This document shows, piece by piece, positions 42,683-49,070 of a stretch of 64,000 nt of DNA. The stretch spans positions 32,001 to 96,000 of the forward strand of contig CACPJC010000002.1 of NCBI GenBank assembly GCA_902634185.1, read 5' to 3'. The notes beneath the pieces were generated by a model. The model was not told the origin of the DNA. It saw nothing but the letters and a program-made list of their open reading frames with translations, and searched no databases. This DNA is from an uncultured Candidatus Actinomarina sp. Lineage in GTDB: Bacteria; Actinomycetota; Acidimicrobiia; Actinomarinales; Actinomarinaceae. Both the position numbers and the translations under genes were made by a program. The number at the start of each line of letters is the position of its first letter. Within the stretch, counting starts at the first letter, position 1.

Positions 42683-43750
42683 TTATACATCAACTCCTGG
42701 AATTGAAGTATCGATAGCTTCGTCGACTCCAGCGTCTGTTTCTTTAATTGGTCGAACTCTCAATAAGATCGTTCCAACTACTGCAGCTGCAACAGCTCCA
42801 ATAGCAACACCAATCAGAACATTCGCACCACCACTTCTAGGTAACATTGCTAAGTATGCAAAAATACTACCCGGTGATGGAGGTCCAATAAGACCAGCGT
42901 CTGTGGCTACCCACCATAGATCGGCAGAAATTCCACCAGCCCACATTGCAACGATCATAATTGGATGACCTAATACATATGGGAAGTAAATTTCATGAAT
43001 TCCACCGAAGAAATGAATAATTATAGAACCCGGTGCTGATTGTTTCCACATTCCAGTTCCTGCAATGTAGTATGCAATAAGCAATCCTAGACCTGGTCCA
43101 GGATTTGATTCAAGCATGTAATATATTGACTTTCCTTCTTCTGCAGCTTGTGCAGCTCCAAGAGGTGTCAACACACCGTGGTTCACAGCATTGTTTAAGA
43201 ACAACACTTTTGCAACTTCAATAGGTATGTCAGCTAAAGGAACTAGACCGGCATCAACGATACCAGCAGCAAAGTTTCCTAAGCCGTCTGCAATTGCTTG
43301 GAGAATGTTTGCAAGAAATGAATAAACAAATACTGCAAGTCCCCAACCAAGGATACCTGATGAGAAGTTGTCATATAACATCTCAAAACCTTCCGGTACA
43401 TTATCACGGAGTCTTGCATCAAGTTCTTTAAGAACTTTTGCTGCTCCAGGTCCAACTAACATAGCACCAAAGAATTGTGGACTGTCTGTTCCGACAATAG
43501 CTGCCATTGTGACAACTGCGCCGATAACTCCACCTCTGTGGCCATATATCATTTTTCCACCGGTATAACCGATTAATAATGGGAGAAGGTTCACAATCAT
43601 TGGTCCGACCATGGAGAACAAATCTCCATTTGGTACCCAGCCATTTTCATGGTACAGGGATGTAATTAATCCCCAAGCGATGAAGGCACCAATGTTAGGA
43701 ATAACCATTCCTGACGCAGCACCACCAACGCGTTGTATGAATTCTTTCAT
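42683..43750 (-). CDS. mtlA: Stand-alone PTS EIIC, mannitol family
   Basis: SGMVIPNIGAFIAWGLITS, AKVLFLNNAVNHG, ESNPGPGLG, HFFGGIHEIYFPYVL. Confidence 0.93.
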   Translation of the reverse strand: MKEFIQRVGGAASGMVIPNIGAFIAWGLITSLYHENGWVPNGDLFSMVGPMIVNLLPLLIGYTGGKMIYGHRGGVIGAVVTMAAIVGTDSPQFFGAMLVGPGAAKVLKELDARLRDNVPEGFEMLYDNFSSGILGWGLAVFVYSFLANILQAIADGLGNFAAGIVDAGLVPLADIPIEVAKVLFLNNAVNHGVLTPLGAAQAAEEGKSIYYMLESNPGPGLGLLIAYYIAGTGMWKQSAPGSIIIHFFGGIHEIYFPYVLGHPIMIVAMWAGGISADLWWVATDAGLIGPPSPGSIFAYLAMLPRSGGANVLIGVAIGAVAAAVVGTILLRVRPIKETDAGVDEAIDTSIPGVDV

Positions 43751-43962: not shown

Positions 43963-44556
43963 ATGGATGTTGAATCAACAATGTTACCGTTAGGAACGAA
44001 AATGCCAAGCTTTAATTTACTAGGCATTGACGGTGAAATGTATGCAAGTGAAATGTTTGATGGAAAAAAAGGTTCTCTTGTGATGTTTATATGCAATCAT
44101 TGTCCTTTTGTTAAGCACGTTAATGAAGAGATAGTAAATTTAAGCAATGAAATAATGGGAAACGATATCGGTGTAATAGGGATTAATTCAAATGACAGTA
44201 GTCAAGAAAAATATGCAGAAGATAGCATTGATAAAATGAGAGAGTATGCAGATAACTTAGGATACAATTTTCCATATGTTGTTGATGAAGATCAATCTGT
44301 TGCAAAAAATTTTACGGCGCAATGTACACCTGATTTTTTTCTTTTTGATAGTGATCAAAATCTTGTTTATAGAGGTCAACTTGATGGCTCTAGACCTGGC
44401 AACGATGTGCCAACAAATGGGGAAAGCCTAAGAAGCGCTATTCAGGCCTTGTTAAAAAATGAAGATCCAATCTCTGAGCAACTTCCAAGTATGGGGTGCA
44501 ACATTAAATGGAGAGTGGGCGAAGAGCCGGATTATTTTTTGAAAGTAAAAGGTTAA
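43963..44556 (+). CDS. Thioredoxin-fold AhpC/TSA (peroxiredoxin-like) protein
   Basis: FICNHCPFV, AQCTPDFF, YRGQLD, SMGCNIKW; SD AGGAGG. Confidence 0.9.
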   Translation: MDVESTMLPLGTKMPSFNLLGIDGEMYASEMFDGKKGSLVMFICNHCPFVKHVNEEIVNLSNEIMGNDIGVIGINSNDSSQEKYAEDSIDKMREYADNLGYNFPYVVDEDQSVAKNFTAQCTPDFFLFDSDQNLVYRGQLDGSRPGNDVPTNGESLRSAIQALLKNEDPISEQLPSMGCNIKWRVGEEPDYFLKVKG

Positions 44557-45077
44557 TCTAAATCTTGAATCTGAATAAAAAGTCTTCTTGGACGCGCACA
44601 ATCTAATTCAACAAAAAAGAGACGTTGCCATCTTCCTAAAATAATTTCAGAATCTACAACAGGTAAAGAAACTGAGGTTGAACCAATAATAGAACCTCTT
44701 ACGTGAGATCTCCCATTTACATTTTCATCTTCTTGCATGTTTTCTGTTCTTAAATCCCAATCATCATGCTCGTAGTATGAATCTGAAGGTATGAGTTCTT
44801 CTAATTTTCTTTTAAAGTCATTAATGTACCCTGTTTCGGATTCGTTAATAATTATTGCTGTAGTTGTATGTGGGGTTGATATTGTTACGGAACCATGTGA
44901 AACTTTTGAAGCTAAAATTAAGTTTTGAATATTTTCAGTAAAATCACAGAACTGATTTGTTTCCTGTGTATCAAAATGTAAAGCGTAAGTTGCAGATTTG
45001 TTTGATGTTGATTTGTTAAGTTCTACCAAATCAGATTTAACAACATCTGCACCAATTCTTTGATTAGGTTTTTTCAT
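44553..45077 (-). CDS. yjbQ: YjbQ/UPF0047 family protein
   Basis: PHTTTAIIINE, YEHD, NGRSH, LGRWQRLFFVELD. Confidence 0.9.
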   Translation of the reverse strand: MKKPNQRIGADVVKSDLVELNKSTSNKSATYALHFDTQETNQFCDFTENIQNLILASKVSHGSVTISTPHTTTAIIINESETGYINDFKRKLEELIPSDSYYEHDDWDLRTENMQEDENVNGRSHVRGSIIGSTSVSLPVVDSEIILGRWQRLFFVELDCARPRRLFIQIQDLD

Positions 45078-45127: not shown

Positions 45128-46336
45128 TCAACTATTTTGTGATAACCAATACTTATAAAGCTGATTGTCGGTTATATCGATATTCTCAATCTCAATTGGT
45201 TCACCTTTTTTAACTTCAGAGTTCACGATATTGTTCTCGGCTATACCTAATGGAGCAAGATTTTTTGAATTTTCTACTCTCATGGCCTTTCCATATATAT
45301 TTTCTCCGCCGATTGAACCAAGATTTGTTCCAGCTTTTAGATCTTTTTTTGAATGCGCAACCACTTCAACGTTCCATTTTTTTGCACTTAGTTGTGTTTC
45401 TTTCTCAACCATTAACTTCATGATTGTTCTTGGAATCTCTAAGCTTGTTAAGTGATAAGGTCTATATAAAGTCCAGTATGGACCTTTTCCCATTTTTAAA
45501 TACTCCATTTCATAATTTACATAATCATCTTCTGAATAAACTATTGCAAAAACACCTGGTGCTACCCCAAACGCAAAATCAACAACATTTGTATTTTCTA
45601 GTATCCCTCCAGATGTTTTAGGAATAAAAATAGAATTTAGTTCATCATAAGTAGAGTTAGGTCCGTGCATTCCATCAATATCAATATCAAAATCAAGATA
45701 ATTTGCTAACGCTGCCATCTCAATCATTGTTTTACTGCCATCAACAAAGCTTGTTAGCATATAGGGGTTCATTTTCTTTTCTTTGGCTTCTTTTTCAAGA
45801 TCCATTGGAGTTTTAAAGACATCAAAAGGATTATTCTTACCTTTACCAATTGCAACTACATCGAGGGAAATTTCTCTTGCAAAATTAAATAACTCAACTG
45901 CTGCAACTGGTTCATCTCCATCTCCAACAGTCACGATGGTGTTGTTTTTCTCTGCCTCTCTATTTAAAGCTAAACCTATCGTTGCTTCTGTCTCGACATT
46001 TAATAAAATCAAATTAATGTTTCTATTTAAAACCTTAAATGCAACTTCAGCTCCTGAGGAAGGTGTTCCTGTTGCTTCTATGACTATATCTAAATCCTGA
46101 TCATCGAGTGAATCAAGATTAGTTGAAATTGTAATATTATTTTTCTGGTTGTATTTGCTTCGAGCCATATCTAATTTGTTTTCGTTTTTGTCAACAATTA
46201 GAACAAGATCTGTATCTGGCATTTTGTTGATTTGAGTGACAATACCCTGACCCATTTGTCCAGCACCAACTAAGGCAACTTTTGTTTTTTTACCTCTTTC
46301 TTGAACAAAATCTGAATATCTATCTAATAAACTCAT
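45128..46336 (-). CDS. NAD(P)-dependent oxidoreductase with C-terminal SAF domain (homoserine dehydrogenase-like, COG4091 type)
   Basis: VGAGQMGQG, EATG, NVETE, GDEP, SFVDGSKTMIEM, YRPYHL, KKDLKAG. Confidence 0.85.
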   Translation of the reverse strand: MSLLDRYSDFVQERGKKTKVALVGAGQMGQGIVTQINKMPDTDLVLIVDKNENKLDMARSKYNQKNNITISTNLDSLDDQDLDIVIEATGTPSSGAEVAFKVLNRNINLILLNVETEATIGLALNREAEKNNTIVTVGDGDEPVAAVELFNFAREISLDVVAIGKGKNNPFDVFKTPMDLEKEAKEKKMNPYMLTSFVDGSKTMIEMAALANYLDFDIDIDGMHGPNSTYDELNSIFIPKTSGGILENTNVVDFAFGVAPGVFAIVYSEDDYVNYEMEYLKMGKGPYWTLYRPYHLTSLEIPRTIMKLMVEKETQLSAKKWNVEVVAHSKKDLKAGTNLGSIGGENIYGKAMRVENSKNLAPLGIAENNIVNSEVKKGEPIEIENIDITDNQLYKYWLSQNS

Positions 46337-47013
46337 TTATTTCCATACTCTTCTAGTTTTAATTTAATAGTTTCTAGATCTTCTTTATATGTTATTTTCA
46401 GATTGAGGTCAGAGCCTAAAATAACTTTTGATTCAATATTCAAATTTTTTGAAACTTGTTGAGTTGTATCGTGTGAAATCATTTCATCTTCAACATTAAT
46501 AAGGTAGGCCTTTTCTAAAATTTCATATTCAAATATTTGGGGAGTTTGAATTTCAACAAGATTATCTTTTAAAAGCTTTTGCGATGTTTTACTGTATAGG
46601 CTGGTCTCTATGTAAGGAGAGCAAGATCCATGTGTTTTTGCTTCTGTAATTAGTTCCTTCAATAAGTCTTCTGGTAGAAAAGATCTTGCACAATCATGAA
46701 TTGCAACTAAATCATTATTATCTACGTCCATTAATTTTAAAGTATTTAGAGCAAAAATCTCGCTTTCTTGTCTTGTCTTGCCTCCTAGAATTAATTCAAA
46801 TTTCTTATCAATTACATATGAATTTAGAATTTCTTTTGTTTTTTCTATATTGGTTTCATTACAAACAATAACTATTGAGTCGATATCGTCACAGTTTAAA
46901 AAAGTTTCGATTGGATATCTAATAAGCTCTTTATCTTTGTATAAAGCAAATAGTTTATCTGACTCAAATCTTTCACTTAAGCCAGCTGCAAGCAGTATTC
47001 CAAAAACTTTCAA
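46333..47013 (-). CDS. IspD/TarI-family cytidylyltransferase with a shortened arm region
   Basis: LLAAGLSERF..DK, GGKTRQES, HDCAR, QTPQ, NLKITYKED; no DTxK or DR arm motifs. Confidence 0.85.
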   Translation of the reverse strand: MKVFGILLAAGLSERFESDKLFALYKDKELIRYPIETFLNCDDIDSIVIVCNETNIEKTKEILNSYVIDKKFELILGGKTRQESEIFALNTLKLMDVDNNDLVAIHDCARSFLPEDLLKELITEAKTHGSCSPYIETSLYSKTSQKLLKDNLVEIQTPQIFEYEILEKAYLINVEDEMISHDTTQQVSKNLNIESKVILGSDLNLKITYKEDLETIKLKLEEYGNK

Positions 47014-47020
47014 TATATTT

Positions 47021-48634
47021 TTATGATATGAGTTTTCTTAAACTTTGAGAATCTGTTGAAGAAAGAATTTCCTCTTTTTTTATATGGGATAAATTTTCTT
47101 TTGCATGAATAAGTGAATTGATTATCTTTGGTCCTTGAGATGGAGCAATACTAAATACTCTAAGTCCAAGTAGGTATAAGATAATTGATGAGTCTTTATC
47201 CGAAGCCATATCTCCACATACAGAGACTTCGATATCATTCTTAAGTCCATTATCGATTACATTACTAATTAGTCTAAGTACAGACACATCAAGAGGGTCT
47301 TGATATTTGTTTAGTGTGGAAAGACCCCGATCAGCTGCATATGTGTATTGAATTAAGTCATTAGTTCCTATTGAAAAGAAATCAACATGTTGAATGTATT
47401 GATCAGTATTTAATGCAACAGAGGGTGTTTCAACCATTATCCCTAAAGGAGGTGGGTTAACATTTAATTTTTTAGATTCATCTGTGACTATTTTTTTAGC
47501 ATCCAGAAAATCATCAAGAATAGAAACCATTGGAAACATTATTTTTACTTTTTCTATCAGATCTGAACTAAGAATTGAAATTATTTGTTCTCTAAAAAGA
47601 TCTTTTTCATCTAAAGAATATCTTATTCCTCTTACCCCAAGAAATGGGTTTTCTTCTTTAGGTAAATTTAAATATGGAACTTGTTTGTCGCCACCTATGT
47701 CTAAAGTTCTAAAAACAATAGTGTTAGAAAATTTTGTATTTAATTCATTATTAATTTCTATTTGTTCTTTTAATGTAGGTTTTGAGGATCTATCAATATA
47801 CACAAATTCAGATCTAAATAGGCCAACTGATTTTATATGGTCATCATTAAAAGCATTTATCTCTTCACTGCTACCTATATTTGCTCTAAGTTCAATACCT
47901 AAGTCTTTGATTGAATCTTGATTATATGACTCTCTTAATTTGTTTATTTTATTCAAACCTTCTTCAACTTTTTTGAGAACATCCGATGTTGGATCTAAGA
48001 AAATTTCTCCTGTATCTCCATCTAATACAACACTTTTATTAAAATCTGTATCGATTTTTGTAATATCAAAATTTATCACACAGGGTATTCCTAAATTTTT
48101 AGCAACAATTACAGCATGAGATGTAGGTCCTGCATTGGATACAACGAAACCCTTTACTTTTGTGAGGTCTATAGATGAAGTATCATTTGGTGTTAAATCA
48201 TCAGCGAAAATAATTACATCCTCATTTAAATTTTTATCTATAACAATATCCTGCATTGTAAAAATGATTTCTTTACCTAAAGAAATTATGTCTTCGGCTC
48301 TTTGTTTAAAATACTCATCTTCAAAACTAAGCATTTGATCTGATATGTCTTTAAAAACTTGAAAAACCTCTAAAAGATTTTGGTCTTCATCGACCATTTC
48401 AACTATCTCAGGGTCATTTATTAGCAGACGATATGCATCTAAAACTTTTGATTCATCTTCTCTGTTTTCTTTTTCTAGTTCACTAATAAGCTGTTCATAT
48501 CGCATATCTAATTTGCTTTGACTTTCTTTAAAACTCAGCTTCTTAGGAATTGAAAAATCTATTTCATTATTAATAACGTAAAATTTACCAAGACCAATAC
48601 CGGGAGAAACTCCTGATCCTTTGTAAGTGTCCAT
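47021..48634 (-). CDS. ptsI: PTS enzyme I
   Basis: GPTSHAVI, GLFRSEF, RTLDIGGDK, ENPFLGVRGIR, SIGTNDL, VCGDMA. Confidence 0.96.
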   Translation of the reverse strand: MDTYKGSGVSPGIGLGKFYVINNEIDFSIPKKLSFKESQSKLDMRYEQLISELEKENREDESKVLDAYRLLINDPEIVEMVDEDQNLLEVFQVFKDISDQMLSFEDEYFKQRAEDIISLGKEIIFTMQDIVIDKNLNEDVIIFADDLTPNDTSSIDLTKVKGFVVSNAGPTSHAVIVAKNLGIPCVINFDITKIDTDFNKSVVLDGDTGEIFLDPTSDVLKKVEEGLNKINKLRESYNQDSIKDLGIELRANIGSSEEINAFNDDHIKSVGLFRSEFVYIDRSSKPTLKEQIEINNELNTKFSNTIVFRTLDIGGDKQVPYLNLPKEENPFLGVRGIRYSLDEKDLFREQIISILSSDLIEKVKIMFPMVSILDDFLDAKKIVTDESKKLNVNPPPLGIMVETPSVALNTDQYIQHVDFFSIGTNDLIQYTYAADRGLSTLNKYQDPLDVSVLRLISNVIDNGLKNDIEVSVCGDMASDKDSSIILYLLGLRVFSIAPSQGPKIINSLIHAKENLSHIKKEEILSSTDSQSLRKLIS

Positions 48635-48704
48635 AGAGTAAAGTTAGTGAAATATTTTTATATTGCAATACTTCTTAGTTGTTAAAGATTGTATCTTTGT
48701 ATTA

Positions 48705-49070
48705 ATGGAAATATTAGAAATTATTATTGATAAAAAATTGTTATCTTCTAAAGATATTGAGGAGCTTGGAATAGTTGAAAATCAATGCTTAAAGCTTGTT
48801 AACTTTAAAAACAGTAGTGATTTAACAGTTGATGATGAAGTTCTTGAAAATTTTGATTGTGTCGTAACTGCAAATGAATTAGGCAGTGCAATCAAAAAAA
48901 TTTCAGATGGAAAAATTGTTGAACATCTGAATAGAGAAAACTATAAAAAACTTACTTATCCATTGTTTCTAAAAAGTGAAACTTTTTTAAAGTTCTTGAA
49001 GGAAAATAATTCAGAATGGAATATGATTAAATTCTTAGAAAATCATACTTTTTCGATTAATCAGATTTAA
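48705..49070 (+). CDS. Non-catalytic IspD-like fragment protein (arm region only)
   Basis: VVTANELGSAIKKISDGKIVEHLNRENYKKLTYPLFL aligns by eye to the IspD arm (APVRDTMKR...HTVDRNGLWHALTPQFF); no N-terminal AAGxGxR. Confidence 0.55.
   Translation: MEILEIIIDKKLLSSKDIEELGIVENQCLKLVNFKNSSDLTVDDEVLENFDCVVTANELGSAIKKISDGKIVEHLNRENYKKLTYPLFLKSETFLKFLKENNSEWNMIKFLENHTFSINQI

Follow-up and report, generated by a model that had tools for sequence, protein, structure and literature searches.

Complementary motif loss in two divergently paired IspD paralogues of Candidatus Actinomarina and its high-GC relatives suggests a possible two-gene cytidylyltransferase

How does an IspD fare when its dimerization arm has lost the residues that other enzymes of the family keep there? 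The question is raised by a locus in a 64,000-nucleotide stretch of contig CACPJC010000002.1 (positions 32,001 to 96,000; assembly GCA_902634185.1) from an uncultured Candidatus Actinomarina sp., which we call the window. The genome is about 1 Mb in size, has a guanine-cytosine (GC) content of about 30% and is 83% complete. On the minus strand, 46333..47013 encodes an IspD-family protein of 226 amino acids with a TTG start (the large protein). On the far side of ptsI, a small open reading frame (ORF) of 121 amino acids runs in the opposite direction (48705..49070, plus strand, with its ATG at 48705). A preliminary description placed these ORFs correctly, including ptsI between them (47021..48634, minus strand), and read the outer two as halves of a split cytidylyltransferase that form an obligate heterodimer. 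IspD is a much-studied drug and herbicide target, and all descriptions of it known to us are of a homodimer whose two sites are equivalent. The preliminary description knew of no heteromeric form, and our literature search, judged by title, likewise found no IspD described as a heterodimer or as working with a pseudoenzyme.

The large protein proved to be an IspD with a complete catalytic core and a stripped arm. It matches the Pfam IspD family (PF01128) with 97.9 bits against a cut-off of 27, its residues 5-217 covering positions 3-216 of the 221-position profile. It falls below the cut-off of the stricter NCBIfam equivalog TIGR00453 (127.3 versus 181.3). A Pfam search identified it as the sole full-length IspD of the genome; two further matches, in ORFs of 457 and 197 amino acids, cover the N-terminal part only. 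The protein aligned end to end with 22 IspD and TarI sequences from the PDB (best match 1vpa, E 3e-19). Two small gaps relative to the solved IspDs fall in its arm, a beta-meander formed by residues 134-155 (46549..46614, minus strand), and the stretch before the QTPQ motif is about 5 residues shorter.

We examined motif conservation in a 49-sequence alignment (A2) that contains the window protein, 25 relatives from its genus, 20 outgroups from the class and three database IspDs. Fifteen residues are invariant in A2: G11, R15, K20, G77, G78, R81, S84, D107, R110, T157, P158, Q159, N204, K206 and T208. The cytidine triphosphate (CTP)-binding loop, the catalytic lysines, and the HDxxR, QTPQ and NxK(I/V)T motifs are all present in the large protein, but it does not match the arm motifs DT.K and (T)xDR. 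None of the 26 genus IspDs has the conserved Asp, Thr or Arg of the arm, versus 19, 20 and 19 of the 20 class outgroups, respectively. At the arm Arg position, the genus IspDs carry Gln, Asn, Lys, Ser, Thr, His and other residues. The arm is also the least conserved part of the large protein, with an identity of 0.32 versus 0.50 elsewhere. The preliminary description had recognized this combination of a retained core and a short arm without its motifs, and both A2 and the PDB comparison bear it out.

The small protein is harder to place by direct searches. It matched no Pfam family at E<=1, no NCBIfam model and no PDB sequence. A profile of 24 family members (A1), searched against 1.84 billion protein representatives, retrieved 39 proteins, and four of the 13 that we scanned with Pfam were full-length IspDs (P0150, P0152, P0154 and P0155; E 3e-4 to 1e-3), with the match lying at about residues 80-177 of IspD. 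Four other small members gave sub-threshold Pfam IspD matches to profile columns 84-173. Relatives of the small protein score 16.9-26 bits against this family, below its cut-off of 27 (20.1 bits for the partner in G034). One unrelated OEP protein and one protein with an epimerase-like N-terminus were also among the A1 matches. Aligning the A1 and A2 profiles with hhalign gave a probability of 80.8% and an E-value of 1.3e-5 over 60 columns. In this register, the family Lys falls on the Lys of DT.K, the Arg on the Arg of DR and the Pro on the Pro of QTPQ. The large and small proteins are paralogues.

Structure comparisons led to the same family. An AlphaFold model of the small protein (pLDDT 85.8, pTM 0.76) gave 28 Foldseek matches at E<=1e-3, of which the best was 4nai (E 1.4e-5). 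Nearly all of the Foldseek rows listed are IspD, TarI or human ISPD, with a glucose-1-phosphate thymidylyltransferase as the one exception. The top nine VIA matches are also IspD, TarI or ISPD, with Z scores of 8.0-7.1 (best root-mean-square deviation 3.4 A over 120 residues, spanning chain residues of about 3-209), although the tool's own note warns that a Z of about 8 can also arise from a common arrangement. The homologue P0168 has an independent Atlas model, which is closest to IspD clusters (TM 0.76-0.80), and two members of one small-protein cluster carry the JGI label MEP cytidylyltransferase (MEP, methylerythritol phosphate). The profile-profile and fold searches thus bear out the likeness to IspD that had earlier been drawn by eye. 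That reading had treated the small ORF as a copy of the arm segment. The arm residues are indeed kept, but Foldseek and VIA indicate more than an arm: judged by its model, the small protein is a whole IspD fold in reduced form and a catalytically dead paralogue.

The motifs retained by the small protein are those that the large protein has lost. The G-x-G-x-R nucleotide loop is not present in A1, and the catalytic lysine is also gone. At 121 amino acids, the protein stops before the NxKIT position, and its profile alignment spans IspD columns 116-169 only. Lacking the nucleotide loop and ending before the NxKIT lysine, the small protein cannot itself be a cytidylyltransferase. The only invariant residues of A1 after Met1 are A62, K64, H74, R77 and P86, and all five lie within the arm-homologous segment (residues 60-86; 48882..48962, plus strand). 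Three of them (K, R and P) also show no variation when the alignment is widened to more of the family (A3). This segment is the best-conserved part of the small protein, with an identity of 0.52 versus 0.26 for the rest. The earlier view that the small ORF has no nucleotide loop but carries a copy of the arm segment with its Arg is therefore upheld by A1 and the hhalign register. So is the claim that the two paralogues underwent complementary losses: one keeps the core without the arm residues and the other keeps the arm residues without the core.

Several lines of evidence show that the small ORF is a real gene. Its frame is open in 45 of 60 genomes of the genus, and its synteny is kept in all 27 loci inspected even though identity falls to 25-30%. 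The chance of 121 open codons at the base composition of the window is 1.4e-4. RNA-library contigs from two studies also cover the ORF; they add little because they do not show the strand, and DNA carry-over is possible. Translation may start earlier than the ATG at 48705. A TTG at 48663 would give a protein of 135 amino acids, the amino acids encoded by the 14 additional codons (48663-48704) are conserved in the nearest species, where they start with TTG or ATG, and database gene calls for the small protein are divided between 135 and 121 amino acids. The database record for a near-identical small protein carries the name 'Acidimicrobiaceae bacterium'.

We asked how consistently the two genes occur together in the order by searching 62 genomes, namely 60 from the genus, a single one from a second genus, and G000. 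Of these, 46 yielded the small gene and 47 yielded IspD. Contig boundaries account for the three genomes in which the two results disagree: the contig of G059 begins in ptsI, that of G079 begins just before ispD and that of G085 ends in ptsI. Both genes were missing from 14 genomes. We rejected these 14 as a test of co-occurrence: the locus is missing from the data, which does not show it missing from the cells, because contigs end at the locus or the DnaB_C match is gone as well. In G001, G006 and G007, the contig that matches breaks off next to or inside the locus, and the DRL gene of G027 (described below) starts at contig base 103. A DnaB_C match was found in none of the five genomes without both genes that we tested, versus all 14 controls. 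The five are G008, G009, G078, G082 and G084, one of which is a single contig of about 1 Mb; in G008 and G009, a comparison with 19 kb of the window at the DNA level also found nothing. Every assembled copy of the locus has ispD and the small gene as a pair. Pairwise distances of the small and large proteins covary across 24 genomes (r 0.92; partial r 0.83 given eamA), which adds only modestly to the case because these genomes are related.

The pairing extends well beyond the genus. IspD scores across 150 genomes of the class fall into two populations, and we compared 40 further IspD loci, three loci of family f2 and 22 outgroup loci. Outside the genus, an adjacent, divergent partner gene was found in 20 of the 23 genomes with an arm-deficient IspD, versus none of 39 canonical IspD loci. 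The 20 paired genomes have GC contents of 60-66% and belong to families f2, f15 and f25; in each, the small ORF lies directly upstream of ispD and points away from it. The high-GC partners share the arm signature (T/V)(D/E)A-x-K, followed after about 12 residues by (V/L/I)DR. A regular-expression search for partners gave obvious false hits and was replaced by a profile of the high-GC partners. The low-GC profile had picked out seventeen partners from 3653 six-frame ORFs (E 2.7e-5 to 0.24), and the profile built from them (A4) recovered the remaining three with E-values of 5e-30, 2e-29 and 6e-21.

In canonical IspDs, the A4 profile matches the region that starts at the arm and runs through the final strand, with E-values down to 1.8e-9, and hhalign of A4 against A2 gave a probability of 91.4% (E 8.9e-7, 70 columns). 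A4 also matches the small proteins of the low-GC genomes (E 3e-6 to 4e-3), which links the two groups of partners. In the high-GC loci, the pair has no DRL, ptsI, eamA or dnaB gene in its vicinity, and the other neighbours vary between lineages. This leaves the partner as the one neighbour that stays constant beside the arm-deficient ispD. The check on co-occurrence that the preliminary description called for thus largely came out in its favour, the pair having been kept together over deep divergence in the order and in the high-GC families. In two high-GC genomes, the survey also turned up an extra, very divergent IspD-like paralogue that has no QTPQ motif and sits on a long branch of the tree (L108, G093:C4; L122, G115:C81).

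The position of ptsI between the two genes, which the preliminary description stressed, is real in the window (TIGR01417, 397 bits) but proved incidental, ptsI being missing in G021, in metagenome relatives and in the high-GC loci. In G021, drl-ispD and the small gene stand back to back, and ptsI was not found in the genome. In two metagenome relatives, whose DnaB is about 70% identical, yjbQ-drl-ispD diverges from small-eamA-dnaB, and neither ptsI nor the mannitol-type phosphotransferase system (PTS) genes are present at the locus. By locus, ptsI is absent between ispD and the small gene in L019, L089 and L090. A mannitol-type PTS EIIC (42683-43750 in the window, identified by a family match) and ptsI surround the ispD locus in the genus; they are missing there in G021 and the two metagenome relatives. 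Because the same place lacks PTS genes in these genomes, the PTS genes look like a later, lineage-specific insertion into an older pair of ispD and partner, and the link between the PTS and the pair looks accidental.

The remaining neighbours frame the pair on both sides. Downstream of ispD, the DXR-II (DRL) gene (45128..46336, minus strand; PF21135, 205.6 bits) begins within the last 4 bases of ispD. A YjbQ/UPF0047-family gene (44553-45077, minus strand) follows drl in the window and in L089, L090 and L101, and because this order is kept, it may be part of the drl operon. On the other side, the small ORF diverges from ptsI and is followed by a convergent EamA-family gene and then dnaB. These two genes share 14 bases at their 3' ends (49057-49070), the two being the small ORF and the EamA-family gene.

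The DXR-II gene bears on the substrate of the pair. Its product matches the Brucella abortus DRL structure 3upy with an E-value of 2e-78. All seven key DXR-II residues are conserved in it (K191, K193, T229, E174, F178, R320 and Y322), residues that PMC3847144 assigns to substrate binding and dimer contacts. A search of the genome, at its 83% completeness, found no DXR-I. The order ispD-drl is confined to the low-GC family and is not seen in the high-GC relatives. IspF is encoded elsewhere in the genome in a disA-carD-ispF-cysS cluster (L004, G000:C1:214736-218194), where a gap of 23 bases separates carD from ispF and holds no ispD. Several relatives in the class have IspD in ORFs of 406-431 amino acids, long enough for IspD-IspF fusions. 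The absence of ispD beside ispF and these fusion-length ORFs suggest that a canonical IspD copy was replaced in this lineage. The product of DRL is MEP. Because DXR-II adjoins the sole IspD and the genome has ispF elsewhere, MEP is most likely what the pair acts on. We found no support for the earlier proposal that the small subunit sets specificity for another polyol phosphate, given a sole IspD, a genome with IspF and the overlap with the DXR-II gene.

A model for the pair can be built on the canonical enzyme. The arm Thr of IspD has been described as hydrogen-bonding the hydroxyls of methylerythritol, with the T141D and T141E substitutions losing most or all activity (PMC3111433), and the beta-meander as the main dimer contact (PMC5099578). 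In the canonical homodimer, each arm supplies the Thr and Arg of the other subunit's site, which hold the methylerythritol phosphate part of the substrate; in the structure of the E. coli enzyme, these two residues reportedly reach across into the other subunit. We propose that the small protein pairs with the arm-deficient IspD through its own beta-meander arm, the normal IspD dimer contact, and that the partner's arm (Ala-x-Lys ... Arg ... Pro) would stand in for the residues that the large subunit has lost. Because the large protein has lost the arm residues and the small protein keeps them, a 1:1 heterodimer would have one composite site, in which the CTP site and catalytic lysines of the large subunit are completed by the arm of the small one. 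The pair would then catalyse step three of the MEP pathway, downstream of the DXR-II whose gene adjoins ispD. Physical binding, complementation in trans and MEP as the substrate are what we infer from these comparisons. We give roughly even odds to the core of this model, in which the small protein partners IspD as a pseudoenzyme and supplies in trans what a single active site lacks. The broader version is that an Acidimicrobiia-like clade, made up of the streamlined marine genus and at least three high-GC families, uses an obligate two-gene IspD with a composite site, in which the small arm gives Lys and Arg and the large subunit could not bind MEP alone. We hold this version a little more tentatively, as having slightly less than an even chance.

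A number of observations weigh against this model. In genus g60, a genome-wide search with A4 detected no partner in any of three genomes that are 96-99% complete, although the same search scored the positive control G132 at 1.2e-20. These genomes (G147, G141 and G135; loci L109, L114 and L116) contain IspF and have an arm-deficient IspD as their sole full-length copy, and it belongs to the same clade as the other arm-deficient IspDs. With no detectable partner in g60, the arm-deficient IspD may act alone there, and the word 'obligate' in the preliminary description is doubtful. The window's own large subunit has a Lys at the arm Arg position that could be a partial substitute for the Arg. The canonical, substrate-binding arm Thr is replaced by Ala in the partner. 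In a quick tree of 36 rows, one of them a long-branch extra copy, one well-supported split (SH-aLRT 100) separates the arm-deficient IspDs from the rest, so that their association with the partner traces to one origin followed by retention and not to repeated events. The VIA score, lying within a common range, is on the same side of the balance.

An alternative is that the large IspD is a self-sufficient homodimer and the small protein does something else, for example as a sensor of MEP or of cytidine diphosphate methylerythritol, or as a regulatory partner that is inhibitory or stabilising. Divergent gene pairs often join a regulator and its target, so the layout of the locus is compatible with such an arrangement, as are the persistence of arm-deficient IspD and IspF without a detectable partner in g60 and the Ala in place of Thr. 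The pattern of conservation is harder to reconcile with it. The best-conserved part of the partner comprises exactly the arm positions lost from the large subunit, the partner occurs only beside arm-deficient IspDs (the 20 of 23 versus 0 of 39 above), and neither Pfam nor NCBIfam revealed a DNA-binding or other domain in it. We therefore regard a self-sufficient enzyme with a regulatory partner as rather unlikely, while giving it real weight. Much less probable, in our estimate, is a pair that acts on a different polyol phosphate delivered by the neighbouring PTS, with the small subunit setting specificity. The ptsI gene between the two genes, the mannitol-type EIIC nearby and a large protein that scores under the NCBIfam IspD equivalog cut-off would fit this idea, but ptsI is missing from between the pair in L019, L089 and L090 and from the vicinity of the pair in the 20 high-GC loci, the large protein is the sole IspD in a genome that has IspF, and a DXR-II with all of its named key residues overlaps the end of ispD. 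We consider it very improbable that the small ORF is what is left of an ispD duplicate that has lost its function and is decaying. Its fast evolution (mean pairwise distance 0.68, versus 0.52 for IspD and 0.34 for EamA) and its lack of a match to any curated family would fit a remnant, but its frame is open in most genomes of the genus and in genomes of 60-66% GC, a run of open codons of this length has a low chance probability, the arm residues are invariant across families, and RNA-library contigs cover the ORF.

We compared the proposed two-gene enzyme with known systems. Canonical homodimeric IspDs (1INI, 5DDT and 1VPA) share their fold and catalytic motifs with the large subunit, and their arm is described as the dimer contact in PMC5099578. 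In those enzymes, a single gene provides both core and arm, whereas here the arm Asp, Thr and Arg are not in the catalytic gene and the arm is found in a separate 121-amino-acid paralogue. TarI and human ISPD are ribitol-5-phosphate cytidylyltransferases of the same family and are among the best sequence matches of the large protein and the best fold matches of the small one. They are single-gene enzymes, however, and the context of the window (DXR-II, IspF in the genome and no teichoic-acid genes seen nearby) indicates MEP. The trypanosomatid prozymes (AdoMetDC/prozyme and PRMT1 ENZ/PRO) follow a similar logic, in which a weak enzyme needs a dead paralogue (PMC5201418, PMC6221367, 10.1101/776112). 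The prozymes differ from our pair in fold and domain of life, and the help proposed here is a donation of site residues in trans, in contrast to relief of autoinhibition. IspDF fusions are another rearrangement of the IspD step, and some Atlas clusters carry IspD and YgbB domains together. In such a fusion, IspD stays intact and gains an IspF domain, whereas here the functions of IspD itself seem to be divided between two genes. Catalytic and non-catalytic paralogues are also paired in GMPPA/GMPPB and plant ADP-glucose pyrophosphorylase, which share the broad nucleotidyltransferase fold class (7d72 and 5l6s are among the VIA matches listed). The partners in those enzymes are full-length and regulatory, but the partner described here is about half the size and keeps only the arm residues.

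If the model is true, the pair would offer a clear bacterial example of duplicates that degenerated in complementary ways, and it would reveal which arm residues of IspD are truly needed in trans. The model would also account for the scores below annotation cut-offs that IspD obtains in these abundant marine bacteria, and for the label 'hypothetical' that its partner carries.

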